DNA of 64,000 nucleotides from Candidatus Enterousia sp. (GTDB taxonomy: Bacteria; Pseudomonadota; Alphaproteobacteria; Rs-D84). Within the stretch, counting starts at the first letter, position 1; every line of letters starts with the position of its first letter. The translations under genes and the position numbers were made by a program. Of this stretch, positions 5,611 to 61,576 are shown in pieces. The notes under the pieces are model-generated. The model was given only the letters and a program-made list of their open reading frames with translations. It did no database searches and had not been told where the DNA came from. The DNA lies in NCBI GenBank assembly GCA_045649345.1, contig JAZRPS010000018.1, forward strand, positions 75,499-139,498. The letters are read 5' to 3'.

Positions 5611-8484
5611 CTACTCCTTTTTACTCTTCTTTATTTTATTGTCTTTTGTTGTTTTGTCCAGATACTTTTGTAAATATTTTCCTGTTTGCGATTCTGGGAC
5701 TCGCACCACATCTTCTGGCGTCCCTGTTGCAATAACTTGCCCGCCCTTGGCGCCACCGGTTGGTCCCAAGTCTATAATCCAATCCGCTGTTTTAATGACT
5801 TCCAGGTTATGCTCAATAACTATTACGGTATTACCCTGCTCTACCAATTCATGTAAAACAGACAATAACATTTTAATATCTTCAAAGTGCAAACCTGTTG
5901 TTGGCTCATCCAAGATATAAATTGTTTCACCTGTACTGCGTGCCGATAATTCCTTGGATAATTTTATGCGCTGTGCCTCACCCCCAGATAAATCCAGCGA
6001 ACTCTGCCCCAATTTTATATAATCCAGCCCCACACGCTTTAACAATTCCAATTTACGGGCAATTTTTGGCACATTAATAAAGAATCTATATGCCTCTTCA
6101 ACAGTCATGTTCAAGACATCTGCGATTGATTTTCCCTTGTACTTTACCGCCAGCGTTTCTTCGTTATAACGCGTTCCACGACAGCAATCGCATTCGACAT
6201 ACACATCTGCCAAGAAATTCATTTCTATTTTTATCTGACCATCACCCTGACACGCTTCACACCGACCGCCCTTAACATTGAACGAGAAACGCCCCGACGT
6301 ATAACCGCGTGCCTTTGCCTCTGGCAAACCTGCAAAGAAATCACGAATATCGCCAAAAACGCCCGTATACGTTGCCGGATTACTGCGTGGCGTACGTCCA
6401 ATTGGCGACTGGTCAATATCGACAACCTTGTCCACATTTTCCATACCACGAATAATATCATGCGCCCCTGTTTCCAACTTTGAATTATACAGTGCGCGCA
6501 TCAGTGCCGGGTACAGCGTATTTAATAACAGCGTTGATTTCCCAGACCCGGAAACACCGGTTAATGCCACAAATTTACCCAACGGGAATTCTACCGTCAC
6601 ATTCTTTAAATTATTTTCACGCGCCCCCACAACAACAATTGACTTACCATTACCAGACCGACGTTTTTTCGGCACGGGGATTTGACGCACACCCGACAAA
6701 TATTGTCCCGTAATTGAATCTTTATTTTTTATAACCTGTTGCGGCGTTCCGTGCGCAATAACATTTCCACCATTGATACCCGCACCACGCCCAATATCGA
6801 CCAGGTAATCCGCCTCTCTCATTGCGTCTTCATCATGCTCAACAACGATAACGGTATTATCCTTGTCACGCAGCATTTTTAATGTTTCCAGCAGTTTATC
6901 ATTATCGCTTTGATGCAGACCAATTGACGGCTCATCTAAAACATATAAAACACCAGACAGCCCACTGCCAATCTGGGACGCCAAACGAATACGTTGCGCT
7001 TCGCCCCCAGACAATGTACCAGCCATACGCGACAACGTTAAATATCCCAAACCAACATTTTGCAAGAAATACAACCTGTCTGTAATCTCACGCAAAACAA
7101 TTCGTGCAATTTCGTTATCTTTTTGCGACAAATGATTCGGCAAATCACGAAACCATTGCAAACAGTCGTCAACAGACATATCGCAAACATCCATAATATC
7201 TGCATCGTTGATCCGCACACACAAGGCATGAATATTCAACCGCTTGCCATGACAAACCGGGCAAGGCTTTTCAGACTGATATTTTGCCAGTTCCGTACGC
7301 ATTGCCTCTGATTCAGACTCGCGCCAACGACGTTCAATATTTGGAATTACACCTTCATATGGCTTTTCATAAACAAATCCATTCCAATTTATTTTTATTG
7401 CCTCGTCACCACTGCCATATAAAATCAAATCTTTCTGTTCCTGGGTTAATGTATGCCACGGTTTTGATAACGGAATCTTAAACTTTTTATGCAGCGCATC
7501 CAACAAATGTTCAAATTGACTAAGCATGCCACCACGCGACCACGGCGCAATTGCCCCACTTAAAATCGATTTTGATGGATCCGGCACCACCAAATCTGGC
7601 GACATATTTAACTGTACCCCCAATCCATCACAGTTCTGACACGCACCCATCGGGGCATTAAATGAAAACAATCTTGGTTCAATCTTTGGCACGGTAAAGC
7701 CACTAACCGGGCATGCATAACTTTGCGAATAAAGCGTATCTTCGTTCGTATCCAAACGACGCACCAATACAGACCCCGGCACCAAACGCAACGACCCTTC
7801 AAACGAAGAATAAAGTCGCGACCTAAATTCTTCTGTATCCGAATCCAACAGTGGCATTTGCAATCTATCCACCACGACCAAAATTGTATGCTTTTTATTT
7901 TTATCCAATGGTGGCACAGCAGACAAATCAACAATTTCCCCGTCAATAATCGCACGTTGATAACCCTGCTTTACCAAGAACGCCAATTCTTTACGATATT
8001 CGCCTTTGCGTTCCCGCACCAAGGGCGCCAGTATAAAAATTTTTGTCCCAGACGGTATTTTCATTGTCCAGTCGACCATTTCTGCAACCGTTTGTGACTT
8101 AATCGGTTTTCCCGTCACAGGCGAATGCGGCACACCAATTCGCGCCCATAACAAACGTAAATAATCATAAATTTCTGTCACTGTACCAACAGTTGAACGT
8201 GGATTTTTTGATGTTGTTTTCTGTTCAATTGAAATCGCAGGCGCCAATCCTTCTATCAAATCAACATCTGGCTTTTTTTGCATATCCAAGAATTGGCGTG
8301 CATAACTGGACAACGATTCCACATATCTACGTTGTCCTTCGGCATAAATAGTATTAAACGCCAACGATGATTTCCCGGAACCAGACACGCCGGTAAAGAC
8401 CACCAATTTATTTTTTGGTATGTCTAAATCAATATTCTTAAGATTGTTTTCGCGCGCACCACGAATTTTAATTACACCAGCCAT
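5611..8484 (-). CDS. uvrA: Excinuclease ABC subunit A
   Basis: 957 aa with two ABC ATPase modules. The N-terminus [43 protein letters not shown] is canonical UvrA. Confidence 0.95.
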
Positions 8485-8562: not shown

Positions 8563-9429
8563 TTATTTTTTTGTTTTCATCAAACTTTCTGGGGTCAACA
8601 ACACACCAGATTTCTTGGTATATTCCGGCCCAATTTGTGGTGCCAACTTTTTATCAACCCACACATCAATTCCACCCGCATTGCCAATCGTTGCCCTGTA
8701 TTCTCCACCGCTTGGAACATAGTATACATCGCCAGGCAACAGTACACGACTCTGTTCTGTACGACCGCGCGCGTCCTTGACTTCAATCCAAGTACCTGCT
8801 TCTCCTGTTTTTTGATTCGCTTGTAATATTATACGTGCTTTTTCACGATTCTCTGTTCCAAAACGTTCGCGCACCGCCATATTATACTCAGGTTCATCGA
8901 CAACATTTTCCACAACAACTACATTTTCCTTGACTTCCTGTGACATCTTTTCTGATGGCTTTAACATCACCAAGACACAAATTGTCAGCGCAATAACAAC
9001 AATTGTACCAACAAACCAAATCCAATGCTGATAAACAAACTGATAAACCTTAACAAAAGTGACCTTTGCCCAATTTTCTTCTTTTATACTGGGCATTGCA
9101 CATGCCGAAGTATCTTCGTCATCATCTGCTGCGCAATCACTTGTCATACCCATTTCTTTTTTAATTTTTGCAACAATTTCATCTGGATTCAGTCCCAATT
9201 CCAACGCATAATTACGCGCAAAACCTAAAATATATACAGGTTCCGGGATAACAGAATAATTCCCTGTTTCCAAGGCTTCTAAAAATTCCTCACGAATACA
9301 TAATTGTTTTGAAATTGTTGGAATTTCACGTTTACGACGCCCAGTTGTACGTGCATTACGCAACATTTCACCCGCGGTTAATTCAACAGGCGTTTCTACA
9401 ACTTCTTTATTTTCTATATTTTCTGTCAT
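8563..9429 (-). CDS. rodZ: RodZ-like cytoskeleton protein (XRE-type HTH + TM + C-terminal DUF4115-like domain)
   Basis: N-terminal HTH (LTAGEMLRNARTTGRRK...), a central TM segment and a C-terminal domain PGDVYYVPSGGEYRATIGNAGGI. Confidence 0.6.
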   Translation of the reverse strand: MTENIENKEVVETPVELTAGEMLRNARTTGRRKREIPTISKQLCIREEFLEALETGNYSVIPEPVYILGFARNYALELGLNPDEIVAKIKKEMGMTSDCAADDDEDTSACAMPSIKEENWAKVTFVKVYQFVYQHWIWFVGTIVVIALTICVLVMLKPSEKMSQEVKENVVVVENVVDEPEYNMAVRERFGTENREKARIILQANQKTGEAGTWIEVKDARGRTEQSRVLLPGDVYYVPSGGEYRATIGNAGGIDVWVDKKLAPQIGPEYTKKSGVLLTPESLMKTKK

Positions 9430-9459
9430 CTTTCACAATCCCCTAAAATTATTTTCACG

Positions 9460-10374
9460 CTAAATAATACCCCAAAATTCACGAATTGCAACCTTTAAGG
9501 CATCAGCATCATCAATTCTATTAACTTTTATACGAAAATCCGAAGAATTCGGCATCCCCGCGCTATACCATGCGGCATGCTTTCTAAACATCGGAACGGC
9601 TGTTTTTTCACCATAATATTCCAAGGCATAATCTAAATGTCTTAAAACAACCTGTCCAATATTTTCTGGCACACCACCACCAGATAATTCCGACAACAGC
9701 CACGGACGCCCCAGAATTCCACGCCCAATCATCGCACCGCTGTACCCCAATTTTTTTACACGTAAAATATCCTCCAGCGTTCGAATATCACCATTTGCAA
9801 TAATTGGCATTGGTGCATCTGAAACATCTGGCAGAACCGCTGCCCCCAGATACAATTGCGCACGCGTACGCCCATGCAGTGCCGCAAAAGACACGCCGCA
9901 ATCAGCCGCAATATTTATCAAATCACGCCAATCCATATGTTCCGCATCCCAGCCCAAACGTGTTTTTATTGAAACAGGTATCTGTACCGCGCCAACAACC
10001 GAACGCATAATTTTTTCTGCCAGCCTATGATCACGCATCAAATGCGCCCCTGCCCCTGCACGCGTTGCAACCTTTGGCACAGGACATCCCATATTTATAT
10101 CAATCCATTTTGCACCTTGATCTTGCAGTATACGTGCAGCATCTGCCATTAAATTAACATCCGCACCAAAAATCTGGGCGCCCACTGCCCCCTCAGTCAA
10201 ATAATTATCGAAATTACGTAAACAATTTTTATGCGACCCAACCAGCGAATGACACGAAATCATTTCCGTCACCAATGGCGCGTTTGGTGAAAAATCACGA
10301 ACAACACGTCGAAATGGACGATCTGTTATCCCGGCAAGTGGTGCAACAAAAATTTGGTTCTGATTATCAAACAT
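9460..10374 (-). CDS. dus: tRNA-dihydrouridine synthase (Dus family, DusB-like)
   Basis: MFDNQNQIFVAPLAGITDRPFRR...DINMGCPVPKV aligns with E. coli DusB. Start trimmed to 10374 because the ORF-track extension to 10596 is non-homologous and overlaps ftsB. Confidence 0.85.
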   Translation of the reverse strand: MFDNQNQIFVAPLAGITDRPFRRVVRDFSPNAPLVTEMISCHSLVGSHKNCLRNFDNYLTEGAVGAQIFGADVNLMADAARILQDQGAKWIDINMGCPVPKVATRAGAGAHLMRDHRLAEKIMRSVVGAVQIPVSIKTRLGWDAEHMDWRDLINIAADCGVSFAALHGRTRAQLYLGAAVLPDVSDAPMPIIANGDIRTLEDILRVKKLGYSGAMIGRGILGRPWLLSELSGGGVPENIGQVVLRHLDYALEYYGEKTAVPMFRKHAAWYSAGMPNSSDFRIKVNRIDDADALKVAIREFWGII

Positions 10375-10384
10375 TTGTGATATA

Positions 10385-10720
10385 ATGCCATCTATGAAGG
10401 AAAAAATCAAAAATTTATTTGGATTCTTGTCACGCGCCTGGTCTGGTGGCTGGCGTGGCAAGTTGGGTATATTGCTTACATTTTTTGCATTCCTTATGTT
10501 TATACGTATGTTTTTGGGCGACGTAAACATACAGAAATTTGCATACAATATATGGCAATTAAACCAAGAACAAAAACAACTGGTCCTGGAACACAAAAAA
10601 CTGGATAATACGAATCGTCATATTGAATTGATTCAGAATTATAGCCCAGATTATGTCGAAGAACTGGGGTTAAAATATTTAAACATTGGCGATCCTGGCG
10701 TAAAAATATTAAAAATTTAA
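10385..10720 (+). CDS. ftsB: Septum formation initiator FtsB/DivIC family
   Basis: Single TM followed by a coiled coil and C-terminal SPDYVEELGLKYLNIGDPG. Divergent from dus with a ~10-bp gap. Confidence 0.6.
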   Translation: MPSMKEKIKNLFGFLSRAWSGGWRGKLGILLTFFAFLMFIRMFLGDVNIQKFAYNIWQLNQEQKQLVLEHKKLDNTNRHIELIQNYSPDYVEELGLKYLNIGDPGVKILKI

Positions 10721-11668: not shown

Positions 11669-11807
11669 CCAAAAACTTGGCACGCCCTACAGGATTGTAA
11701 ATTCCCATCTTCGCTTTCGCTCAATGGGCCCCTTTCGCCTACGGCTCGAACCTGTGACGGCTCTCATCCTTTGTCCGCGCCAAAAACTTGGCACGCCCTA
11801 CAGGATT
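11669..11807. repeat. Tandem partial duplicate of the tRNA-Arg 3' region: two 28-bp direct repeats (11669-11696 and 11780-11807) flank an 83-bp insert whose first 50 bp (11697-11746) is a conserved core also found at tRNA-Ser
   Basis: ccaaaaacttggcacgccctacaggatt occurs twice. On the tRNA strand the insert reads ...gtcACAGGTTCGA[50-bp core]AATCCTGTAGGGCGTGCCA. This is a tRNA-Arg T-arm/acceptor copy split inside the T-loop. Confidence 0.85.
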
Positions 11808-11865
11808 CGAACCTGTGACCTGCAGATTAGAAATCTGATGCTCTATCCAGCTGAGCTAAGGGCGC
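11789..11865 (-). tRNA. tRNA-Arg (anticodon TCT)
   Basis: GCGCCCTTAGCTCAGCTGGATAGAGCATCAGATTTCTAATCTGCAGGTCACAGGTTCGAATCCTGTAGGGCGTGCCA folds as a clean cloverleaf with anticodon loop TTTCTAA. Confidence 0.9.
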
Positions 11866-11882
11866 ACACTATGTATTCTACA

Positions 11883-13154
11883 CTATTTTTTTTGAATTTC
11901 AAGTCCCAGGTTTTCTGGGGTCAAGACACCAATCGCAGACAATATTGCAAAATATGCAGAAATCCGGGCATGTTTGGCACGCGTATGCGCAACCCGGGAA
12001 TTCAATAGTTCTTGTTCCGCGTTTAACACATCCAAAACCGTACGACGACCGCGTATTTGTTCATCACGGATACCATTCAAGGCCAGCTTATTTGCATCAA
12101 TACTGGCCCGTGTCGCAGATATTGCATATTCCTGCGCCTGATATACATTCCATGCCGACCGTAAATTTTCAATTATCACACGACGTGCATTTATTGTTTG
12201 TTCTTGAATACCCGCAACAGTTGCACGAACCTTGTCCGCATTGGCAAATGCATTACCTTTGTCATACAATGGAACCTTTAAATAAACACCAACACGACTG
12301 TCACGAATATCATCTAAATATGGTACATCGTCTATCTGTTGTATCGAACCACGCACATCAACTGACGGCAATATTGATTTATATGCAACCGTTATATTTG
12401 CACGTGCGGTTTCTTCTTGTGCAGTCAATGCACGCAATATTGGATGATTTCGCAGCGCACCTTGTTCCGCACTATCAATATCATCAGGAAACAAACCTGA
12501 TACAGGCGCCAAATTGACATCTGTCCATTTGCAATCAATATCACCATAAATTCGCCGAAATGTTTCCAGCGCATTCTCATACTGGGCCCGCGCATCCACA
12601 ACATGATAGTTCGCCATTTCCAGACGCGCAGATGCCTGGGAAACATCTGTTCGTGTCAACATACCAACCGATTGCCTGTCACGAACAAAATTATAATATT
12701 CTGTTAAAACACGCTGATTATTTTCATTCAAATATAACACCTGTTTCGCATTTAAAACCTCTATATACGCATTTATCGCGGACATAAACACGTCCTGCTG
12801 TGTTGCGTATAAACTTGCCTGTTGTGCAACTAAATTATTCTTTGCACCTTTATATCGGGCAAAATTCGCCCCACCCTGGAACAAAGTCTGTTGAAATTCC
12901 AGTCCATATTGCAGTGGCGAATAATCAAACGTTTCGCCTAAAACCTTGGTTCGTGCAACGCCTGCATTACCAGACAGCCCCAAATACGGCTGAAATTCTG
13001 TTGTTGACGCGCGCACATCTGCCTGGGCCACCTCAACTGCACTGCGTTCCTGGTTAATAACAGGGTTCAAATCATATACATATTGCAATGCCGAATACAT
13101 GTCTGCATTTGCCACACATGGACACAAAAATATAAATAAAAACATCCTCTTCAT
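11883..13154 (-). CDS. TolC-family outer-membrane efflux protein
   Basis: 423 aa with a signal peptide and the TolC/OEP two-repeat architecture; last gene of the exporter operon. Confidence 0.75.
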   Translation of the reverse strand: MKRMFLFIFLCPCVANADMYSALQYVYDLNPVINQERSAVEVAQADVRASTTEFQPYLGLSGNAGVARTKVLGETFDYSPLQYGLEFQQTLFQGGANFARYKGAKNNLVAQQASLYATQQDVFMSAINAYIEVLNAKQVLYLNENNQRVLTEYYNFVRDRQSVGMLTRTDVSQASARLEMANYHVVDARAQYENALETFRRIYGDIDCKWTDVNLAPVSGLFPDDIDSAEQGALRNHPILRALTAQEETARANITVAYKSILPSVDVRGSIQQIDDVPYLDDIRDSRVGVYLKVPLYDKGNAFANADKVRATVAGIQEQTINARRVIIENLRSAWNVYQAQEYAISATRASIDANKLALNGIRDEQIRGRRTVLDVLNAEQELLNSRVAHTRAKHARISAYFAILSAIGVLTPENLGLEIQKK

Positions 13155-13169
13155 ATTGTTCCTCCGTAT

Positions 13170-14261
13170 CTATAACGTTGTTTTCCATCTGCGCAGCGCA
13201 ATCAACCATATCACAGCCCCTGCCCCCAGCATTGCCGACGCGTGTTTTGAAAAATAAATCCAATCCGGTCCCTTTAACATAATATTCCGCACCAAATACG
13301 AATAGTGACTTAATGGATTTATATAACTTATCCAGCGTAAAACAATTGGCATATTTTCCGTTGATATAATTGCCCCTGACAGCATCAACGCCAAGAATGC
13401 CACAATAATCAATCCTAACATCGCCTGTTGCTGTGTATGCGTATACGTTGACAGCCAAACACCAATTCCACACGCCGGCACACAAAACACCAAAAAAGAC
13501 AGCAAAAACATTAACCCCGACCCTGCAAATGGCGCACCAAAAACAGCCATGCCAACAATAACAACGCTTAACATAACAACGAAAGAAACCAAGACATACG
13601 GAACAACCTTGCCCAACACAATATCATACTTTGAAATCGGCGCTGAAATCAGCGTTTCCATTGTGCCTGTTTCTTTTTCCTTGGTTATTGATATGGACAC
13701 CAGTATCAACAATGCTAAAAACACCAAGATAGACACCATTGACGGCACCATAAAAAACTTAGTATTTAACTGAGGATTAAATAATATTCGCAAATTAAAA
13801 TCTATCGGAGACTTTATTTGTGTATTTGTCATATCCGCCAATGTTTTTGTTATGATTGCACGCAGATACGCCTCTATACTATGCGCCTTTAATATATTCA
13901 TAGAATCAACAAGTATTTGAATTTCACCATCGCCACGAACCAAGGCGCGCGTTAAACCACCATCTGGCGCAATTATTGCAACATCTGCATGTCCGCCCTG
14001 AACCATATCAACAGGATCGCGTCCCATATCGTTTACAGGCACAAAAAAACCAGTACCCAATGCATCATTATAAATACGACTCATAACAGAATCATTTGGC
14101 ATATTTTGCATTACCAAACGTAAATTTGTTGCCTGAAAGGTAATTGCCCCCGACAACAATACCATCTGAACCACCGGCATTATCAAGACCGCCATCATCA
14201 ATATCGGATCACGCAGCAATGAAATCATTTCTTTCTTAAAAAATCCCAACAAAACCTTCAT
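13170..14261 (-). CDS. ABC-2 family transporter permease (YbhR/YbhS-like)
   Basis: 363 aa with an N-terminal TM, a large periplasmic loop and a C-terminal cluster of TM helices. Confidence 0.7.
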   Translation of the reverse strand: MKVLLGFFKKEMISLLRDPILMMAVLIMPVVQMVLLSGAITFQATNLRLVMQNMPNDSVMSRIYNDALGTGFFVPVNDMGRDPVDMVQGGHADVAIIAPDGGLTRALVRGDGEIQILVDSMNILKAHSIEAYLRAIITKTLADMTNTQIKSPIDFNLRILFNPQLNTKFFMVPSMVSILVFLALLILVSISITKEKETGTMETLISAPISKYDIVLGKVVPYVLVSFVVMLSVVIVGMAVFGAPFAGSGLMFLLSFLVFCVPACGIGVWLSTYTHTQQQAMLGLIIVAFLALMLSGAIISTENMPIVLRWISYINPLSHYSYLVRNIMLKGPDWIYFSKHASAMLGAGAVIWLIALRRWKTTL

Positions 14262-15382
14262 TCCAGCGACCTCTTAAACCGAAAGACACAAAACACCAAT
14301 ATAATTAATGCCTGAAATGCTAATACCGCATACAACCACCATATATCTATAAAAAAACTGCCTTTTAAAAATTGATCACGTGTTAAATCCATATAAAATC
14401 GTGCAGGAAACAACGACGAAACAACTTGATAGCCACGGCTCATATATTCAATTGGGAAAACAAATCCAGATAATATAACCGTCGGCAACAAACCTATTAT
14501 TGCGGCATATTGAATTGCAACCTCTTGCTTTTTAGTTGAAACAGAAATCAACAACCCAATCGCCAGATAACCCAATATAAACAACCATGTTCCTAAAATT
14601 AATTGCCAATACGAACCGACAAACGGCACACCAAATACAATACGCGCGATAAAAAACACCAAAACAAAGCCTATAAAACTAAGTATTGCATATGGCGCAA
14701 CCTTGCCCACAATAATATCCAAGCGCGTTGCTGGCGTAGACAACAACATTTCCATCGAACCTCGTTCCCACTCACGACATATTGTCAATGTGGTCAACAT
14801 TATTGCCACCAGTGCGATAATCACTGCACTTAACCCAGGCACCGCAAACCAGCGTGAATTTAATTCTGGATTAAACAAATATCTAATTTTATACGATGGA
14901 TTTTGAACAACCGCCCCCACAGGAATATCCAAAACTTTAAAATATGCATTATTATTTATTGTTGCCAGATAATTCGAAACAGATGAAATTGATGAACTCT
15001 CTGTTCCATCAACCAAAATTTGAACTGCGCCATCGCCACGCCCCAAAACATCTTTTTCGAAATCTGGCGGAATAATCAGCCCAACACGCGCCACACCCGA
15101 CACAATATCATCAAATATGCTTTCTGGATTATCAACATCATACGGTTTGAAATAATTAGAACTGCCAAATGTTTCAATTAATTTTCGCGATGCAAATGAT
15201 TTATCTGCATCAGAATACGCCAGTCGAATCGACTTTATATTAAATTCAATTGAACTGCCCAAAATCAAAACAATCAACAATGGCAACATCAGTGCCATCA
15301 TCAACGTAAACGGATCGCGAAATATGTGCTTAAATTCTTTGGACAAAATTGCACGCGTACGTCGCCACGAAAAGACCGTCAT
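14258..15382 (-). CDS. ABC-2 family transporter permease (YbhS/YbhR-like)
   Basis: 374 aa, paralogous to the downstream permease; overlaps the neighbouring genes by 4 nt at each end. Confidence 0.7.
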   Translation of the reverse strand: MTVFSWRRTRAILSKEFKHIFRDPFTLMMALMLPLLIVLILGSSIEFNIKSIRLAYSDADKSFASRKLIETFGSSNYFKPYDVDNPESIFDDIVSGVARVGLIIPPDFEKDVLGRGDGAVQILVDGTESSSISSVSNYLATINNNAYFKVLDIPVGAVVQNPSYKIRYLFNPELNSRWFAVPGLSAVIIALVAIMLTTLTICREWERGSMEMLLSTPATRLDIIVGKVAPYAILSFIGFVLVFFIARIVFGVPFVGSYWQLILGTWLFILGYLAIGLLISVSTKKQEVAIQYAAIIGLLPTVILSGFVFPIEYMSRGYQVVSSLFPARFYMDLTRDQFLKGSFFIDIWWLYAVLAFQALIILVFCVFRFKRSLE

Positions 15383-16290
15383 CTGTTTTGCCCCTCAACC
15401 AATTGAACAAAAACATCCTCTAATGACGGTTGAATTTGCTCTATTTCCCAATCTGCCCTCAACAGATTTAACTGATACGAAACAGGGACATCTTCTTTAA
15501 AGCGCAAATGAAAATCGCGTCCATACGGTTGCCAAATATCGACCAATGCCATATCAGGTGCTTTTGCTTTACCATGCCTGGGACGCAATCTATATAAACC
15601 ATTTACAAATGTTGTACGTTTTAATTCCGACGGCGTATCAATTGCAATCAATTCACCAGCACGCATCAATGCGATACGATTACAATTTTCTGCTTCGTCC
15701 ATATAATGCGTGGTCACAAATATAGTCTTTTTATCTTCTGCCAATTTTTTTATCAAGAACCAAAATCGTTGACGCGCAACAGGTGCAACACCTGCAGTCG
15801 GCTCATCAAGGAATACAATTTGCGGATCATGCAACAACGCAACGCACAAGGCAACTTCCTGCTTTATACCCCCCGGCAAATTTTTAACCAAAACATTTAA
15901 TTTTCTATCAAAACCGATAAAATCCAATAACCTTTCACGTCGTTTTACATACATATCGCTATCAAGTCTGCGCAACGCAGCTGCAAAATCAAAATTTTCT
16001 TTGACCGACAGCCCATCATACAGCGTAAATCGCTGGGACATATATCCAACTTTCTGTTTTATTATATTTTCACGTCCTGCGATAAAATTTTCACCATCTA
16101 TTTCTACATCACCTGCGCTGGCTAGCAACAGTCCGCACAAAACACGTATTGTCGTCGTTTTACCTGCACCATTTGCCCCCAAAAAGCCAAAAATTTCACC
16201 ACGCGCGACATCAAAAGACACATTCCGCACTGCATAAAAATCGCCAAAACGCACAGACATGTTCTTAACACGAACAATTGCATTTTTCAT
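15379..16290 (-). CDS. ABC transporter ATP-binding protein
   Basis: Walker A GANGAGKTT, signature LPGGIKQ, Walker B FLDEPT. Confidence 0.8.
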   Translation of the reverse strand: MKNAIVRVKNMSVRFGDFYAVRNVSFDVARGEIFGFLGANGAGKTTTIRVLCGLLLASAGDVEIDGENFIAGRENIIKQKVGYMSQRFTLYDGLSVKENFDFAAALRRLDSDMYVKRRERLLDFIGFDRKLNVLVKNLPGGIKQEVALCVALLHDPQIVFLDEPTAGVAPVARQRFWFLIKKLAEDKKTIFVTTHYMDEAENCNRIALMRAGELIAIDTPSELKRTTFVNGLYRLRPRHGKAKAPDMALVDIWQPYGRDFHLRFKEDVPVSYQLNLLRADWEIEQIQPSLEDVFVQLVEGQNR

Positions 16291-17021
16291 TCTCGTATTC
16301 CCCCACGTGACGAAAATAATTCATCAAAATTTCGACTATTGTATTTCTGTAATAAATTTCCAGGCGCCCCATGTGCCAAAACGTGTCCATATTCCATTAA
16401 AACAACCGCTGTACAACGTTCTGCCTCGTCCATATATGCAGTAGACATCAACACCAAAATCCCATCAGAGACTGCATTATGTAATAAATCCCAAAATTCA
16501 CGTCTACTAATCGGGTCAACACCATTTGTTGGCTCGTCTAATAACATAATTTGTGGCGACCGTAATAATGCACAAATCAACCCCAACTTTTTATACATTC
16601 CACCAGACAATTCGCCGGCAGGCCTATCGATAAATTTATCCAAACGTGCCAAATGAAGCAATTCTGCCTTTTTATGCCGAAAATCATTGTCATTGATTCC
16701 ATAAAGTTTTCTAAAAAAATCCAAATGTTCTGCCACAGACAAATCAGAATATAAACTTTGGCTTTGTGGCATGTATGCAATATGTTCCTGAATTTTATCA
16801 AACAAAATAGGCATACCATTTTCATGATATTGTACAGCCCCCGAATTTGCACGCATTAAATCCAGCATTATACGAAACAACGTTGTCTTACCAGCCCCGG
16901 CAGGTCCAATAACACCATACAAATTACCACTTTTAAAACGCATAGACACATCATCCAACGCCAAAATATCTTTAAAGCGTTTTGAAACATTTGTGACGTG
17001 AATTTCGATATTATTTTTCAT
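16287..17021 (-). CDS. ABC transporter ATP-binding protein
   Basis: Walker A GPAGAGKTT, signature LSGGMYKK, Walker B LLDEPTNGVD. Confidence 0.8.
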   Translation of the reverse strand: MKNNIEIHVTNVSKRFKDILALDDVSMRFKSGNLYGVIGPAGAGKTTLFRIMLDLMRANSGAVQYHENGMPILFDKIQEHIAYMPQSQSLYSDLSVAEHLDFFRKLYGINDNDFRHKKAELLHLARLDKFIDRPAGELSGGMYKKLGLICALLRSPQIMLLDEPTNGVDPISRREFWDLLHNAVSDGILVLMSTAYMDEAERCTAVVLMEYGHVLAHGAPGNLLQKYNSRNFDELFSSRGGIRE

Positions 17022-22122: not shown

Positions 22123-22360
22123 TTATCCAACCACCGCAACATAAAAATAAAATGCCCAAAACGGGCATTTAATTTTTATAGCGGATGGTGAGGGATTGTA
22201 AATTCCCATCTTCGCTTTCGCTCTATGGGCCCCTTTCGCCTACGGCTTCGAACCCCACGCAACTTCGTTGCTCATCCGGGTGTTCTTATCCAACCACCGC
22301 AACATAAAAATAAAATGCCCAAAACGGGCATTTAATTTTTATGGCGGATGGTGAGGGATT
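22123..22360. repeat. Tandem partial duplicate of the tRNA-Ser 3' region: two 75-bp direct repeats (22123-22197 and 22286-22360, 1 mismatch) flank an 88-bp insert that starts with the same 50-bp core (22198-22247) seen at tRNA-Arg
   Basis: Each repeat contains the tRNA 3' 19 nt plus 56 bp of flank, including the gcccaaaacgggc terminator hairpin. On the tRNA strand the insert reads ...gcgtGGGGTTCGAA[core]AATCCCTCACCATCCGCTA. Confidence 0.85.
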
Positions 22361-53277: not shown

Positions 53278-53369
53278 AAAATAATGATTTTTGATTTGTC
53301 AACATTCGAACTCGGTGGAAATATTAGAAAACAAAAGAAAACTTGCCTCGATAGGCAAGTTTTGAAACT

Positions 53370-53443
53370 TTGGTTGGGGCAGCTGGATTCGAACCAACAC
53401 TGACGGAGTCAGAGTCCGGAGTTCTACCATTAAACTATGCCCC
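53370..53443 (-). tRNA. tRNA-Gln (anticodon CTG)
   Basis: TGGGGCATAGTTTAATGGTAGAACTCCGGACTCTGACTCCGTCAGTGTTGGTTCGAATCCAGCTGCCCCAACCA has the Gln-characteristic U1:A72 pair. Confidence 0.85.
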
Positions 53444-53444
53444 A
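53407..53444. repeat. 38-bp direct repeat, copy 1 (tRNA-Gln positions 1-38 plus 1 nt flank); its partner lies at 56175-56212
   Basis: gtcagagtccggagttctaccattaaactatgccccaa is identical at both sites. Confidence 0.9.
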
Positions 53445-53500
53445 AGCACCGCGGATTATAAGCCTTTTTTATTTTTAATGCAAGTAGAAAGTTTTTTCTA

Positions 53501-53518
53501 TGTAAAAAATATGTAAAA
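53501..53518. repeat. 18-bp motif TGTAAAAAATATGTAAAA, copy 1 (copy 2 at 56023-56040)
   Basis: Exact repeat at both borders of the tRNA-Gln islet in the same orientation, each upstream of a plus-strand gene. Confidence 0.8.
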
Positions 53519-53613
53519 TTTTTTGCAAAATGTGATATAATACCCATGACACAGGCGACTGTGTTGGGGCGTAAGAACCTCGCTATTTTCGGTGTCCGTG
53601 GGGACAATAAATA

Positions 53614-53720
53614 CCTCCAACTTTATTTTGGTTGGAGGGTCGCGAATATATTGAATAAGCGCGCTATTTTCCGAAAATAATAGTTCTTAACCTCCAACCG
53701 TCCGCTTTGTGACGGTTATT
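53614..53720 (+). promoter_or_regulatory. Structured 5' leader with alternative pairings (candidate attenuator) upstream of the 53743 gene
   Basis: cctccaac (53614-21) can pair with gttggagg (53631-38). A second cctccaacc (53691-99) overlaps the terminator-like stem aaccgtc/gacggtt + ATTTTAT (53696-53720), so the two pairings are mutually exclusive. Confidence 0.3.
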
Positions 53721-53742
53721 TTATAACAAAGGGAATACAAAT

Positions 53743-54669
53743 ATGCGATTAACATTTGGGATTTTATTGTCGTTGATGGTGGGGGTTGCACACGCAAACA
53801 CAGACCTGGCCGCGGCGATTGAAAATGTTCGCGCCACATGCGGAAACATCAGTGCGGAATTATCAGACATGAAAAAAATGGCGGGTATAACAACGGCGGT
53901 GACGGGTGTTGGAACGGTCGCCGGTGGTGTGGCACTGGGGACCGGTATTGCCAAGGCAAATGTTGATAAAGAAATAGAAGAATTAGAATCCCAAATCGCA
54001 CGCTTAAACGCGGAACGCGGTGATGTGCCGATTGAACATTTGCAAATAGAAGACGAGGCCTTATTCAAACGCCAGGTGAATGAGTTTATTGCGTATTATC
54101 AGGCGAAAGAGCAAGAAATATCAGTAGCTGAACAAAAATCAAAAAATCTTGGCAATTGGCGTACCGGCACATTGGCGGCCGCCACAGCAACAAACATTGC
54201 AGGTGCGGTTATGTCGGGCACAAATCGGGTCAAGGGAGATTTGAAACAACAAATTGATGAATGCTTGGTATCTGTAAAAACATTGTCCAACATTCGTATG
54301 CAGGCACGCATAGACGGCAGTGCCACAGACACAGATTTAGCACGTGCCGAAAATATTATTCGTGCATGCGATGCATGGACCACGGTTGACATCACATCAA
54401 TCAACAATCGTTCCAAGGGCGCAACAGTATCATCTGGCATTGGTGCGGGATTGGGACTTGCCGGCACAATAACATCCGCATCGGCAAATTCAAAGGACGT
54501 TCGCGATGGCGACAGCGACAAAGAAAAGAACTTGAACACAGCGGCAAATGTGTTGGCCGGTGGTACAACCGTTGCATCGGCGACCGCAACAATATTTAAC
54601 GCGACACAAATAAATGCAATAAAACGTGCGGCAACCGTTGCCGATGAATGCGAGGGGGCGCTGAGATAA
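53743..54669 (+). CDS. Secreted glycine-zipper / coiled-coil protein (possible membrane-active or pore-forming protein); unknown family
   Basis: Signal MRLTFGILLSLMVGVAHA, then three Gly/Ala/Thr-rich hydrophobic segments (AGITTAVTGVGTVAGGVALGTGIA, GTLAAATATNIAGAVMSG, SSGIGAGLGLAGTITSA) alternating with charged helices. Confidence 0.55.
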   Translation: MRLTFGILLSLMVGVAHANTDLAAAIENVRATCGNISAELSDMKKMAGITTAVTGVGTVAGGVALGTGIAKANVDKEIEELESQIARLNAERGDVPIEHLQIEDEALFKRQVNEFIAYYQAKEQEISVAEQKSKNLGNWRTGTLAAATATNIAGAVMSGTNRVKGDLKQQIDECLVSVKTLSNIRMQARIDGSATDTDLARAENIIRACDAWTTVDITSINNRSKGATVSSGIGAGLGLAGTITSASANSKDVRDGDSDKEKNLNTAANVLAGGTTVASATATIFNATQINAIKRAATVADECEGALR

Positions 54670-54670
54670 A

Positions 54671-55411
54671 ATGAAAAAGATACTACTTATTGCAGGTATG
54701 ATTGCCACACCATTAAGCGTGGCATTGGCAAAAGGTATTAACTTTGATACGGCAATACGATGGAACACACAAGTTATTTCACAGGCACTGAAAGATACTG
54801 GATTTAAACCAAGTTCCAGTGTGGGACCCGTGTATAATAGAATACTTAAAGCGTTGTTAGCTCTGGATACATTTTCGGCACGCCAAGCTGTTGAAGTCTG
54901 TATGGAAGAATGCAACAAGTCAAAGATGTTAAAAGAAGGACAAGGTAATAGTGGCAAGAAATGTCCACAGTTGTGTCAAGAATTTGCAAGTTCGTTAGTA
55001 ATAGCAAATAATAAAGCAAATAACGCTTTGTTGACTGGGAATACTGAACACAAAACCGTTAGTTATCGAGTTTATTTTAGTAAAGAAAGTGCTGCATATA
55101 TTACCGGTACTAGCCCTATTACTCATGATGTAATTATTACTTTTAAGGACGAAGAACACTCTTCTAAGACTTTTTGTAAGAAATTGACAGCAGATGCATT
55201 TGAGCGCGGTCTAAAATACCCTATGACATGTGGCGGTGAGTGTAAACTGTTCGGAAACGATATAATCGAGGTTTCAGCTAGTGGGACTGGTCGATACTAT
55301 GACACTTTATACTATGAAGTTGATGATTTTTGTGATAGTTGGTATGGCCGTGAAGGTAAGTTTTTCTGGCGCGTTAATTTTGATGGTACTATGGAAGAAC
55401 TAAAGAACTAG
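54671..55411 (+). CDS. Secreted Cys-rich hypothetical protein
   Basis: Signal MKKILLIAGMIATPLSVALA, several Cys pairs, and a 1-nt gap from the upstream gene. Confidence 0.55.
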   Translation: MKKILLIAGMIATPLSVALAKGINFDTAIRWNTQVISQALKDTGFKPSSSVGPVYNRILKALLALDTFSARQAVEVCMEECNKSKMLKEGQGNSGKKCPQLCQEFASSLVIANNKANNALLTGNTEHKTVSYRVYFSKESAAYITGTSPITHDVIITFKDEEHSSKTFCKKLTADAFERGLKYPMTCGGECKLFGNDIIEVSASGTGRYYDTLYYEVDDFCDSWYGREGKFFWRVNFDGTMEELKN

Positions 55412-55459
55412 ACAGATGACACAATAGAATTTGATATAAATAACAAAAAGGAAAATACT

Positions 55460-55978
55460 ATGTTAAACACAATGAATATTACTGAAATAATGCGATTGAC
55501 AGATGCTGTTTATGAATGCGATAAACTTGGCCACGGTCAAAACATTGATTCATTCAAAGAAATCAGCAACCCAAATCGTATTAAACGATTTGTACGATTT
55601 GAAAATCGCACACCGCACAGTAAATATCAATCTGCCCTGACAGATAACTTGAAAAATGCTGGCAATGGCGAAGCCGTTATTACAATGAAAATTACCGAGC
55701 AAAATGGAAACTTTATTTTGTCAGATCGTGGTTTTACGAGTGCAACCTTTATTGACTTGTCCAAAGTATCCGATGAAGAAAAAGCGTTTTTGAGTGAATT
55801 GATTCGCAACACACAAACAAAAATGCAGTTGGCCAAAGCGCAATCCAAAGCAGATAAATTGAACGCTGGTATTACACAAATCCAAGATGCCGCAAACAAA
55901 ACAAAATCTGGTTTGGGCAGTCGCAACGTCAATGCACTAAAACAAATTATTGCCGAAACCGCAGAATACACAAAATAA
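55460..55978 (+). CDS. Hypothetical protein (no signal peptide)
   Basis: 172 aa, last gene of the islet, followed by the terminator ccaccgccccatatgggcggtg + T-run. Confidence 0.5.
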   Translation: MLNTMNITEIMRLTDAVYECDKLGHGQNIDSFKEISNPNRIKRFVRFENRTPHSKYQSALTDNLKNAGNGEAVITMKITEQNGNFILSDRGFTSATFIDLSKVSDEEKAFLSELIRNTQTKMQLAKAQSKADKLNAGITQIQDAANKTKSGLGSRNVNALKQIIAETAEYTK

Positions 55979-56022
55979 CTCCACCGCCCCATATGGGCGG
56001 TGTTTTTATGCCAAAATTCCTG

Positions 56023-56040
56023 TGTAAAAAATATGTAAAA
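56023..56040. repeat. 18-bp motif TGTAAAAAATATGTAAAA, copy 2
   Basis: Identical to 53501-53518. Confidence 0.8.
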
Positions 56041-56174
56041 CTGAAACTATATACGGACCAGCTTAAACCAGCCTGTATGCAGTGATATGCACAAATGTTA
56101 AACGGCCATTTTTGCCCGAAATTCAGGCTGTATTGCGCGGAAATCTGGGAATTTTTTTGTGTAGCATATAGGTT

Positions 56175-56212
56175 GTCAGAGTCCGGAGTTCTACCATTAA
56201 ACTATGCCCCAA
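56175..56212. repeat. 38-bp direct repeat, copy 2: a 5'-half fragment of tRNA-Gln (pseudo-tRNA fragment)
   Basis: Identical to 53407-53444; 2.73 kb separates the two copies. Confidence 0.9.
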
Positions 56213-56346
56213 TGCCCGCCTATTATATGCATCACGAATACATTTTGCAAGCAGAAAATTTAACACTTTTTACCCCCCCACACACAAAAACAATATTGAC
56301 AAATTTTATTATTGTGCTATACTCTGCCCATAAAAAGGCGCACAAT

Positions 56347-57087
56347 ATGCAAAAACCAACAATTGAATACAAAACTATTATTATTAATGAAAAAAACATT
56401 CAAGCATTTCGCATGCTGCCGGGGGTTCGTGGTCGATATATATCGAACAATCACAAAATTATTATATACCGATACACAATCGCATCAAATTTAATACTGC
56501 CCCAAAACGACAATGCTCATAAAAAGATTGCAGAAATAAAGCGCGAAGAACCAATGGTTTTAGCACACGAAATGCAACACGCACAAAACAGAATGAAATC
56601 CGAACCAATAACAACGATTTCAAACAATATTTATGAATATATCGCTCTGCATTGCATGGACGAGGCATCAGCATTCACCGCTGGAATTTTATCAGGTCAA
56701 CGAATAAAAACAAACAAAGCTGTTTTACAAGCTGCAATTGACGGCACCAATGAATTTCTGGCAAAAAAAGAATTTTATTTAACACGATTTGCAAGTGTCA
56801 TTATGAACGACGTCGTGTCCTTTAATAACGAAAAACCAACGTCTAGCATGATTAAACGCAATGGCGCAAAATTCTTTGAACAAAACTTTTCTACGAACTT
56901 TCGTGCCACATTATCTACATATTTTACATTCAATGGGTATTGTTTATTAAATGATTCTGCATTGCACACAACCAAAGAATGGCAGATATTTCGCAACAAT
57001 GTCAAAGAAATTAAGACCGCGTGCATCAATCGTGCATCTGCAATTGCGAACATGATCAAGCAACATAATTACTTTTATGGTTGCTAA
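56347..57087 (+). CDS. Hypothetical protein with HExxH zinc-metallopeptidase-like motif
   Basis: PMVLAHEMQHAQNRM. Start trimmed to MQKPTIEYK because the ORF-track extension runs through the tRNA-Gln fragment. Confidence 0.5.
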   Translation: MQKPTIEYKTIIINEKNIQAFRMLPGVRGRYISNNHKIIIYRYTIASNLILPQNDNAHKKIAEIKREEPMVLAHEMQHAQNRMKSEPITTISNNIYEYIALHCMDEASAFTAGILSGQRIKTNKAVLQAAIDGTNEFLAKKEFYLTRFASVIMNDVVSFNNEKPTSSMIKRNGAKFFEQNFSTNFRATLSTYFTFNGYCLLNDSALHTTKEWQIFRNNVKEIKTACINRASAIANMIKQHNYFYGC

Positions 57088-59713: not shown

Positions 59714-61576
59714 TTGTATTATATTTATTGTGTGTGGGCAAGATATAGAATTTTTATCACATCACTTATATGTGCAACAGCAATTTGCGCACCTGTTCAC
59801 GCACAAAACTGCAACAGCGAAGTATACCGACTTTATCACCCAGACAAATGTGACAAATTCGTAAATTCAACCATAAAAAAAAGCGCGATTATTACTGGTT
59901 CTGCCATTGGATTGGTCGGTGGCGCAATCGTATTGTTCGGCAATACGTCATCGGATTCATCTTCTGACAACGGCACACCACAAGCATTACAACCAACCGC
60001 ATCAACATATGACCATGTCGGCGCCGATGTCGATATCGCCAGTATCAATCGGATAATCCAAGACCACGAATATTCTAAAAACATAAACCAATATAACGAA
60101 ATTCGTTTGGCATATTCTTTAGCACGTGGCTATACAGGATTAGGCAGTACAATTGCGGTTCTCGATTCTGGCAAAAACACATGGCACGGCGGAAATGTTG
60201 CATATTTCGCGTCTGGTCAAATCGCACCAAACGCGACTGTAAATTCATACATGGTATCTGATCGCGACGGAAACTTTATGCCATTTAACGAAATTGCAAA
60301 TGTTATTGAATCTGCAAACGGATCAAATATTTACAATTTCAGTTGGGCAATGGACAAACCCGCCACACAAATAAAGTCACGAACACAACTGGAACGCTTG
60401 ACCAGTGTAAACTTTATAAATTCATTAACAAATGCTGCCACACAAAACGATGCAATCTTTGTTTGGGCAGCAGGCAACGAATATCGCACACAACCAAACG
60501 CGTTGGCAGCAATGCCAAATGTTATCCCAGAATTACAAGGTCATGTTGTGAACGTCGTCGCATGGGACAGCGTAACAGGCGCATTGGCCGACTTCAGCAA
60601 TTCATGTGGCGTCACAATGAATTATTGCATAACCGCCCCAGGCACAAACTTAACAACGCCACAATCATCAGAAACACTGAACGGCACCAGTTTTGCTGCC
60701 CCAATCGTATCATCTGCTATCGCAGTAATACGCGAAGCATTCCCATACATGAAATCCACAGAAATAACACACTTACTATTCACAACTGCACGCGACCTGG
60801 GCATCGCCGGCATTGACGAAACATACGGTCACGGAATGCTGGACCTGGAACGTGCAACCCGCCCCGTTGGCACGCCACTGGTGCCATTATCAGATGGCAC
60901 GACCGTCAACCTGACCCAGGCACGCGTTGGTTCTTCTATTGGCAACCAAATAAAATCCAAAGATATAAAATTTGCCTTTGTTGATTCGTATGGCCGCGCA
61001 TTTGAAACGTCACTGAACAACAACATAAAAATACAGAACCGCAGCATTGGATTCGAACGCCTGCGCGAACACAACACCCCCCAGGCAAAAATCGGAAAAA
61101 TCACATTTGGCATAAAACAAAGCGACCTGCTGATGGCAGACGGTTTTTTACAATCCAACACACGCAACACCATGACATTCATCAGATATGATGATAAAAT
61201 CCAACTTGGCAACACGGAATTATTCCAACAGACGACATTTGGTTCAATGAACCCACGCCCAACACCCGAATCAATGATTTCTGGGTTTTTTAACGTATAC
61301 ACAGCATCTATTTTCATTGGCGCACGTTATAATGACCTAAGTTTCAGCATCGGCATACCAGACACAATTGTTGGCGGCAACGCGCACCTGAATATACCAA
61401 CAGGACGCACCACATCCGGCGAATATACATTCCGCGGCGCAACCATTGATTTAACAAATCATGACCCCACACTGGAATACAACGCAACATATAAATTTGT
61501 GACAGCCGGCTTTGTTGACAATCCATACGGCACAGACGAATTTTACATTTTGGGGCGCGGTCGCCTAAAATTTTAA
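59714..61576 (+). CDS. Subtilisin-like (S8) serine peptidase with probable C-terminal autotransporter beta-domain; atypical Asp/His spacing
   Basis: Signal peptide, then VLDSG, AAGNEY and GTSFAAP motifs. The only nearby His (TWHGG) lies 7 residues after the Asp. The C-terminal ~250 aa has alternating beta-strand character and ends ...RGRLKF. Confidence 0.55.
   Translation: MYYIYCVWARYRIFITSLICATAICAPVHAQNCNSEVYRLYHPDKCDKFVNSTIKKSAIITGSAIGLVGGAIVLFGNTSSDSSSDNGTPQALQPTASTYDHVGADVDIASINRIIQDHEYSKNINQYNEIRLAYSLARGYTGLGSTIAVLDSGKNTWHGGNVAYFASGQIAPNATVNSYMVSDRDGNFMPFNEIANVIESANGSNIYNFSWAMDKPATQIKSRTQLERLTSVNFINSLTNAATQNDAIFVWAAGNEYRTQPNALAAMPNVIPELQGHVVNVVAWDSVTGALADFSNSCGVTMNYCITAPGTNLTTPQSSETLNGTSFAAPIVSSAIAVIREAFPYMKSTEITHLLFTTARDLGIAGIDETYGHGMLDLERATRPVGTPLVPLSDGTTVNLTQARVGSSIGNQIKSKDIKFAFVDSYGRAFETSLNNNIKIQNRSIGFERLREHNTPQAKIGKITFGIKQSDLLMADGFLQSNTRNTMTFIRYDDKIQLGNTELFQQTTFGSMNPRPTPESMISGFFNVYTASIFIGARYNDLSFSIGIPDTIVGGNAHLNIPTGRTTSGEYTFRGATIDLTNHDPTLEYNATYKFVTAGFVDNPYGTDEFYILGRGRLKF

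Follow-up and report, generated by a model that had tools for sequence, protein, structure and literature searches.

A tRNA-Gln half-copy with a conserved promoter and extension, and a candidate two-state leader RNA, at a variable secreted-protein locus of Candidatus Enterousia

When a variable region is bordered by a partial copy of a tRNA gene, that copy is usually taken to prove insertion by an integrase. The locus described here raises the question of whether such a copy can be something else. The DNA analysed, hereafter the window, comprises 64,000 nucleotides (nt) of Candidatus Enterousia sp. (positions 75,499 to 139,498 of contig JAZRPS010000018.1, assembly GCA_045649345.1). Between its positions 53,370 and 56,212, an intact tRNA-Gln gene and a fragment of that gene bracket a small operon, and a sequence-only reading had taken this bracket for a recent insertion by an integrase that crosses over in the anticodon loop. 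We consider it probable, on balance, that the fragment is instead an old partial duplicate of tRNA-Gln, and that the space between the two is a cassette slot whose cargo turns over by homologous recombination. The best-supported new item of the locus is the leader of the operon, for which the case as a candidate new regulatory RNA is a strong one.

What exactly has been duplicated? The intact gene, a tRNA-Gln(CTG) with its CCA encoded, lies on the minus strand at 53371..53444 (ARAGORN; Rfam tRNA model, 64.5 bits) and has an intrinsic terminator on the same strand at 53338..53363, found by a terminator scan. A 38-nt string, GTCAGAGTCCGGAGTTCTACCATTAAACTATGCCCCAA, has two exact occurrences, both on the minus strand: one at 53408-53445, where it makes up tRNA positions -1 to 37, and the other at 56175-56212, where it constitutes the tRNA-Gln 5' fragment. 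Shuffled sequences would be expected to yield 0 such matches. The repeat spans the 5' end of the tRNA through the entire anticodon loop, and imperfect similarity extends 18 nt further upstream of the tRNA, giving 56 nt at 89% identity with a TATAAT box in both copies. Direct repeats of part of a tRNA gene at both ends, which serve as a criterion for genomic islands, are therefore present. Read along the tRNA, the 5' fragment comes first, then the islet and then the intact tRNA; this is the arrangement of reversed polarity, in which the promoter and 5' part of the tRNA come from an element while the displaced 5' part stands at the far end. The earlier description of a duplicated 5' half (positions 1-38) in this polarity is thus borne out by the exact copy.

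Each repeat copy is preceded on the minus strand by a sigma-70-type promoter of the form TTGCA(T/A)-17-TATAAT. That of the intact gene, promA (TTGCAT-17-TATAAT; 53455..53483, read from the sequence), is 90-93% conserved in five related loci (L016, L017, L022, L025 and L044). That of the fragment, promB (TTGCAA-17-TATAAT; 56222..56250, 10/12 in a promoter scan), has kept its hexamers in 7 genomes despite a diverged spacer; in locus L075, the promoter of the intact tRNA-Gln matches it at 97-98%.

The next question is how old the bracket is. The lineage belongs to the order Rs-D84; its genomes are smaller than about 1 Mb, and it inhabits the gut of farm animals (PMC12306168). A genome scan provided 79 loci for comparison, many of them titled Candidatus Enterousia (10-sequence alignment). 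At least six further Candidatus Enterousia assemblies have the bracket too (L012, L016, L065, L009, L091 and L092). Two of these show the intact tRNA-Gln together with a 5' fragment of 38-40 nt (L012, tRNA 9407-9480 and fragment 13778-13818; L016, tRNA 9627-9700 and fragment 12235-12275); the other four show the fragment together with the conserved segment next to it that we call the right-end block. All 38 positions of the fragment are identical in L012, L016, L065, L091 and L092. The window itself seems to come from an uncultured bacterium assembled from a metagenome, which could invite the suspicion that the duplication is an assembly artefact; however, the junction of fragment and block is found in seven independent assemblies from different studies and hosts, and we regard an artefact as extremely improbable.

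The genes that flank the bracket have diverged considerably. A DUF5662 gene is 65-67% identical in DNA between bracket-bearing genomes, and for a hydrolase-like gene the figures are 74-78% (DNA) and 77-84% (protein); the housekeeping genes of L016 are 76-80% identical. Because the flanking genes are this far apart (65-78% in DNA), the duplication must predate several species. Consistent with this, a rough tree built from the hydrolase-like protein has bracket-bearing genomes throughout the clade. Another genome, L022, keeps only the first ~30 nt of the block, and its loss is taken to be secondary because it nests among the bracket-bearing genomes. L022 and three further loci (L007, L017 and L025) have tRNA-Gln, its promoter, the leader and the first gene of the operon, with no fragment in the stretch of sequence covered at each locus. 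A recent acquisition does not agree with a bracket common to genomes whose hydrolase-like proteins are only 77-84% identical, and the proposal of a recent insertion by an anticodon-loop integrase is not supported.

What, then, has kept the fragment in place? Fused to it is the right-end block, a conserved segment of 165 nt (56011..56174, minus strand; alignment of six genomes), with a mean pairwise identity of 93% and a minimum of 90% among the six. Its left edge is sharp, the sequence beyond being unrelated between genomes. To the right of the fragment, 60 nt are only 56% identical, and within them a TTGCA-type -35 box and a TATAAT are kept 16-19 nt apart. The block is non-coding, because its indels are of 1 or 2 nt and never multiples of 3; this rules out a small protein gene. 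As a structured RNA it fares no better, for it has no significant fold (z-scores of -1.6 and -0.3) and no covariation, folding of the single sequence and of the alignment being equally unsupportive. Nor does it behave as a trans-acting RNA that pairs with the leader, the gene starts or tRNA-Gln, as the duplex energies are no better than those of shuffles. It has no match in Rfam and none among phage or viral contigs. With its working-looking promoter and conserved 165-nt extension, the half-tRNA would seem to be more than a simple scar, and the conservation pattern suggests that promoter and block are kept by selection or something equivalent.

One alternative is that the block owes its conservation to a recent spread between species together with the cassettes, and not to function, with the half-tRNA as a neutral leftover. 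Cassette DNA is indeed 83-94% identical where flanking genes are 65-80% identical, which suggests exchange between species. However, with unrelated sequence to the left of the block and a promoter region at 56% to its right, every recent transfer would need to have been limited to these 200 nt, and the promoter hexamers and their spacing have nonetheless been kept. We consider this explanation improbable. As a separate observation on the block, a TATATA (window 56048-56053) found in most genomes is CATATG in L016 (12110-12115); the two outer bases have changed together and the dyad is preserved. This hints at, and would suit, a DNA site for a dimeric protein, although it is a single case.

If the bracket is old, is its content equally so? 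Three open reading frames (ORFs) fill the interval between the repeat copies in the window, all on the plus strand and all taken from the ORF list: g1, of 308 amino acids (aa; 53743..54669); g2, a Cys-rich secreted protein of 246 aa that is the variable partner of g1 (54671..55411); and g3, of 172 aa and without a signal peptide (55460..55978). A bidirectional intrinsic terminator follows at 55982..56002 (scan of both strands). The slot of L012 contains the same three ORFs plus a broken gene for a subtilisin-like (S8) peptidase and an extra copy of the border motif discussed below; that of L016 contains g1 with ORFs of 252 and 97 aa; and that of L091 has a 689-aa protein adjoining the block. 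The patterns of identity are those of a mosaic. Between the window and L007, g1 is 94% identical, g2 is unrelated and g3 is 93% identical. Between the window and L016, the stretch from the tRNA through g1 is 85% identical, the middle is unrelated, and terminator and block together are 93% identical. While g3 is present in L001, L007 and L012, the 97-aa ORF takes its place in L004 and L016. Further, the unit from the motif to the stop codon of g3 (53500-55979) is found beside tRNA-Asn in L001, and in L004 it lies at a site without a tRNA, flanked by direct repeats of 116-225 nt.

Several observations accompany these mosaic loci. The L004 repeats (7658-7773, 10411-10526 and 15464-15579, also seen as 10366-10590 / 15419-15643) are 91-97% identical over their 116-225 nt; they flank the g1 cassette and a second gene group, and they look like another cassette-boundary sequence. 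In L001 (6926-7001), the g1-g2-g3 cassette lies 5' of tRNA-Asn with two small Cys-rich ORFs in between, and L044 and L075 have g1-like cassettes 3' of tRNA-Gln. Cassettes with g1 recur next to tRNA genes.

A candidate for the empty site is provided by L044, in which tRNA-Gln and its promoter are followed by a 331-aa gene, the DUF5662 gene and the hydrolase-like gene, with no cassette or fragment. A search for empty sites by way of the gene to the right of the fragment, which encodes an HExxH protein, returned 5 homologues on short contigs; one of them (L009) carries the fragment and two (L010 and L011) have a different upstream gene. An identical arrangement without variation in related strains would have told against the sequence-only reading, and the cargo does vary between genomes. 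Its broader contrast between a mobile islet and an ancient fixed duplication stands only in part: the cargo is variable, but the bracket around it is old and common to several species.

Could the motif at the two borders have served as a recombination site? The 18-nt motif TGTAAAAAATATGTAAAA, of the form TGTAAAA-N4-TGTAAAA, occurs exactly at 53501 and 56023, as had been reported, and these (53501..53518 and 56023..56040, plus strand) are its only two copies in the 64 kb. When 3 mismatches were allowed, 14 of 100 shuffles gave at least two hits, so that it is the comparative data, and not this count, that lend the motif its significance. The left copy lies 26-27 nt upstream of the leader start in the window and in L016, L017, L022 and L025, and a variant is retained in L001, where there is no tRNA-Gln. 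Given the fixed spacing to the leader and the retention in L001, we conclude that the motif is part of the operon promoter, in which it is the -35-region element; the extended -10 box, TGATATAAT (53533..53541, plus strand), was read from the sequence and is conserved in related loci. The TGTAAAA direct repeats, one helical turn apart and in place of a -35 box, are probably a binding site for an activator or other regulator. The right copy is in the block of every genome that has the block, with 135 further bases between it and the fragment, and it does not serve a plus-strand promoter, there being no -10 box at the spacing of the g1 promoter. A role specific to attachment (att) is not supported for a sequence that is a promoter element and moves with the cassette to other loci.

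Is there a recombinase that could account for the bracket? Neither a tyrosine nor a serine recombinase is encoded in the interval in the window, L012 or L016, and the three ORFs of the window include none, so the islet lacks an integrase as first described. A tBLASTn search of the window with Enterousia serine recombinases found no relatives, and no candidate mobilising integrase was seen in 1.3 Mb of related loci. Large serine recombinases, with Resolvase, Recombinase and Zn-ribbon domains, do adjoin the 3' end of tRNA-Gln in three loci (L044:11773-16456; L075:2468-4027; L019:1-84). The L044 element (11773-16456, ~4.7 kb) is bounded by a 16-nt repeat, TTGTCAATCTTGGTTG, that includes the last 7 nt of the tRNA and, at the one junction examined, is an ordinary 3'-end insertion. 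Its weak match to a rolling-circle Rep protein (PF23343, below the cut-off) suggests a small integrated plasmid or phage. tRNA-Gln is thus a busy integration site in the genus. These serine recombinases were rejected as the cause of the 5' repeat, as the repeat of L044 sits at the 3' end of the tRNA; an integrase recognizing the anticodon-loop crossover, which the sequence-only reading had suggested looking for, was not found in the related loci, those seen being neighbors of that 3' end.

These facts bear on a further alternative, namely that the locus is a decayed integrative element of reversed polarity that has lost its integrase, or a cis-mobilisable element that an integrase encoded elsewhere would move, with the block and the motifs as the arms of its attachment sites. 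Cis-mobilisable elements, of which there are streptococcal examples, are att-flanked islands that have no integration genes of their own, and our locus resembles them in its tRNA-derived direct repeats around a small cargo without a recombinase; it differs in that the analysis brought up no cognate element with an integrase that uses this junction, the element of L044 joining the 3' end of tRNA-Gln. Much else fits such an origin: the direct repeat ends at the anticodon stem-loop, promoters stand at both of its copies, the junction has a motif copy to each side, at ~95 and ~135 nt, the abrupt inner border of the block would suit the end of an att arm, other elements of the genus target tRNA-Gln, and a relative (L044) is without the insert. 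Rare cases of recombination with the 5'-distal part of a tRNA gene are on record (PMC6563490, citing Zhao and Williams 2002). The elements described there share with our locus the duplication of the tRNA's 5' part and promoter, with the intact gene at one end and the 5' fragment at the other. They differ from it in that no integrase lies in or beside our interval in any genome examined, that our bracket is old and present in several species, and that the displaced fragment here keeps a conserved promoter and a 165-nt extension. The interval's lack of a recombinase, its age and the travel of the left motif with the cassette to loci without tRNA-Gln all argue against a decayed element, and promoter hexamers maintained despite divergence of the spacer would be needless in a dead scar. 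We thus hold this origin to be unlikely, though it would explain where the junction lies. Half-tRNA brackets and 5'-distal recombination are already known; the conserved promoter and extension and the proposed integrase-free turnover of cargo are new.

We therefore return to the old partial duplicate and to its workings. The right repeat is the 5' half of such a duplicate of tRNA-Gln and has kept its own sigma-70-type promoter; the duplicate could have arisen by tandem gene duplication or by an old integration of reversed polarity. Promoter, half-tRNA and block form a module that is conserved across several Candidatus Enterousia species; transcribed leftwards from its own promoter, it would yield an RNA of ~200 nt that begins with the half-tRNA. 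The slot between this module and the intact tRNA-Gln contains different secreted-protein operons in different genomes, here leader-g1-g2-g3. Turnover would proceed without a resident integrase, through homologous recombination between conserved segments: the tRNA, promoter, leader and g1 on the left and the terminator and block on the right. Further, the direct repeat of ~95 nt formed by half-tRNA and promoter could allow the whole cargo to be deleted or re-captured by a single crossover.

Some points weigh against this proposal. All of the comparison genomes are metagenome assemblies, with mostly short contigs. The case for transcription of the half-tRNA module comes from the conservation of its promoter only, and that for homologous recombination from mosaic patterns. 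The repeat ends close to the anticodon loop, as a site-specific crossover would have it end. The empty site of L044 is imperfect: the species is another one, and the unrelated 331-aa gene stands where the window has its HExxH gene. Finally, besides lacking a significant fold and covariation, the block has lost some of its predicted pairs in L091; were it an RNA, its structure would be inconspicuous, and a DNA site is an alternative.

What controls the cargo that occupies the slot? The sequence-only reading had placed a structured leader before the first gene, and this is confirmed. The leader (53544..53741, plus strand; about 175-190 nt in length) was delineated by folding, covariation and homologues. 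Its fold has a z-score of -4.96 relative to shuffles, and compensatory changes are found in 22 of 50 pairs (RNAalifold, 14 homologues). Its parts are a variable 5' hairpin; a long closing helix in which GGGG...AAGAAC pairs with GUUCUU...CCUC; a helix that has been rewritten in almost every genome, with pairs such as CUAUUUUCGG/CCGAAAAUA, CAUAUAG/CUAUAUG and UUGUGG/CCACAA; a small hairpin; a hairpin of CCUCCAAC with GGUUGGAGG; a short stem with the conserved loop GAAUAUAUUGAAUAAG; and a terminator.

The 3' arm GGUUGGAGG can pair instead with a downstream copy, CCUCCAACC, and so close an alternative three-way junction (core at 53630..53700, plus strand; supported by covariation and a covariance-model match of 95 bits). 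The downstream copy shares an AACC with the terminator hairpin (53696-53717; 53696..53724 with its T tract, plus strand, from the terminator scan and alignment), so that the terminator's 5' arm and the 3' strand of the alternative closing helix partly coincide. Across 18 distinct sequences, 96% of the cells in the three-way junction are paired and 7 pairs have changed on both sides; none of 500 shuffles did as well, and slid controls were 28-56% paired. In L001b and L039, the 5' arm, the 3' arm and the downstream copy have all changed together. Such a joint change of three segments is the signature of a switch between two conserved folds, and the covariation points to a two-state terminator/antiterminator RNA. 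We envision that the operon is transcribed rightwards from the promoter that has TGTAAAA-N4-TGTAAAA as its -35 region. The off state would comprise a four-way junction and the intrinsic terminator; the on state would comprise the three-way junction, whose closing helix would take the terminator's 5' arm.

The leader is not confined to g1. Searches with nhmmer and a covariance model identified 26 distinct copies in related loci in addition to the one in the window, located 0-40 nt (in one case ~90 nt) upstream of diverse genes. These encode g1, small Cys-rich secreted proteins, a PAP2-like protein, a DNA methylase/restriction operon and small helix-turn-helix-like proteins. The copy above the restriction operon is diverged; it lies on the minus strand of L001 (6377-6567), directly upstream of genes for a DNA methylase and a HaeIII-type restriction enzyme, and the same RNA switch thus appears also to head a defence system.

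Does this RNA belong to a class already described? Rfam has no match for it, even at an E-value of 10 on a 321-nt slice. Like transcription-terminating riboswitches and protein-dependent attenuators, it is a conserved multi-helix RNA that precedes the start codon and combines an intrinsic terminator with an alternative helix excluding it, both with covariation support; unlike them, it lacks an Rfam match, and its downstream genes are so diverse that they yield no candidate ligand or binding protein. Another comparison is with sRNA-Xcc1 (RF02221), an RNA of integron cassettes, phages and islands that is often found upstream of a gene (bioRxiv 10.1101/2025.06.18.660453; 10.1101/2020.03.17.996009). 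In both, a G-rich/C-rich helix closes a three-way junction, and the 3' strand of this helix continues into a terminator. However, the leader does not match RF02221 at an E-value of 10, and membership was rejected; the resemblance is architectural only, a lead. A separate element to the right of the L012 fragment (L012:14033-14125, plus strand) does have a sub-threshold match to RF02221 (44 bits against a gathering score of 53; E ~1e-6). It stands where a leader would, ahead of an autotransporter-like gene, with a closing helix that continues into a terminator, and the junction sequence UUCUUAAC is shared; the model of our leader's core misses this element. Similar sequence occurs in L044 (8459-8740) and L031 (5522-5664).

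A more ambitious proposal joins the two halves of this analysis. The leader may be the first described member of a class of two-state regulatory RNAs, acting as a riboswitch or as an antiterminator that depends on a factor, and may control many horizontally exchanged secreted-protein and defence operons in the reduced genomes of Candidatus Enterousia; at the same time, the promoter-bearing half-tRNA with its block may be a functional gene for a non-coding RNA that descends from a tRNA gene, and not an integration scar. We offer this conjunction tentatively, as somewhat short of probable.

The proteins of the cassette are themselves unfamiliar. As the sequence-only reading had said, they are signal-peptide or unknown proteins: Pfam, NCBIfam and PADLOC gave no match above curated cut-offs for g1, g2 or g3. 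The g1 protein has at least 1917 homologues in the database, the named ones all from uncultured gut Alphaproteobacteria, and its family forms 376 clusters at 50% identity. By alignment it has four invariant cysteines, and its structure model (pLDDT, the predicted local distance difference test, of 71) is that of a long, secreted, all-alpha protein with hydrophobic Gly/Ala-rich helices. In these modeled features it would be akin to alpha-pore-forming toxins (ClyA, Hbl, AhlB and XaxA), whose fold had been suggested for it; no structural similarity to a member of that family was detected, and we do not retain the suggestion. An 868-aa secreted neighbor had been thought to be a relative of this glycine-zipper protein. 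That kinship also found no backing in sequence or profile, with a best BLASTP E-value of 0.22 and an hhalign probability of 1.9%, the latter match spanning one Gly/Ala-rich stretch of 36 residues; tBLASTn found no second g1-like gene in the window, and a local family of the two proteins was rejected.

Other features of the neighborhood deserve brief mention. The HExxH protein to the right of the fragment (56347-57087, plus strand) has no family match and is very rare, with 5 clusters in 5.8 billion proteins, all on contigs of less than 3 kb. Further to the right (59714-61576, plus strand), the window encodes a 620-aa S8 protein whose matches to autotransporter serine peptidases are below cut-offs; S8 genes come directly after the g1 cassette in L001 and L007, and L012 has the broken gene. 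A conserved element of ~60 nt, GAGGGATTGTAAATTCCCATCTTCGCTTTCGCTCTATGGGCCCCTTTCGCCTACGGCT, is found just past the 3' ends of tRNA-Arg and tRNA-Ser genes (window 11692-11743 and 22190-22244) and occurs again in another genome (L004:15235-15289); it starts with a hairpin that resembles an anticodon arm.

For reading such loci in general, the implication is that a "scar" can become, or be mistaken for, a gene; here, the copy has long been kept with a promoter and an extension. Further, cargo exchange in a slot beside a tRNA gene need not depend on a recombinase encoded there. The g1 family emerges as a large group of secreted helical proteins, with four invariant cysteines, that belongs to no known family. 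The leader RNA heads operons for secreted proteins without known relatives in an uncultured, genome-reduced lineage of the gut, and it could be a handle on a signal that these bacteria answer there.

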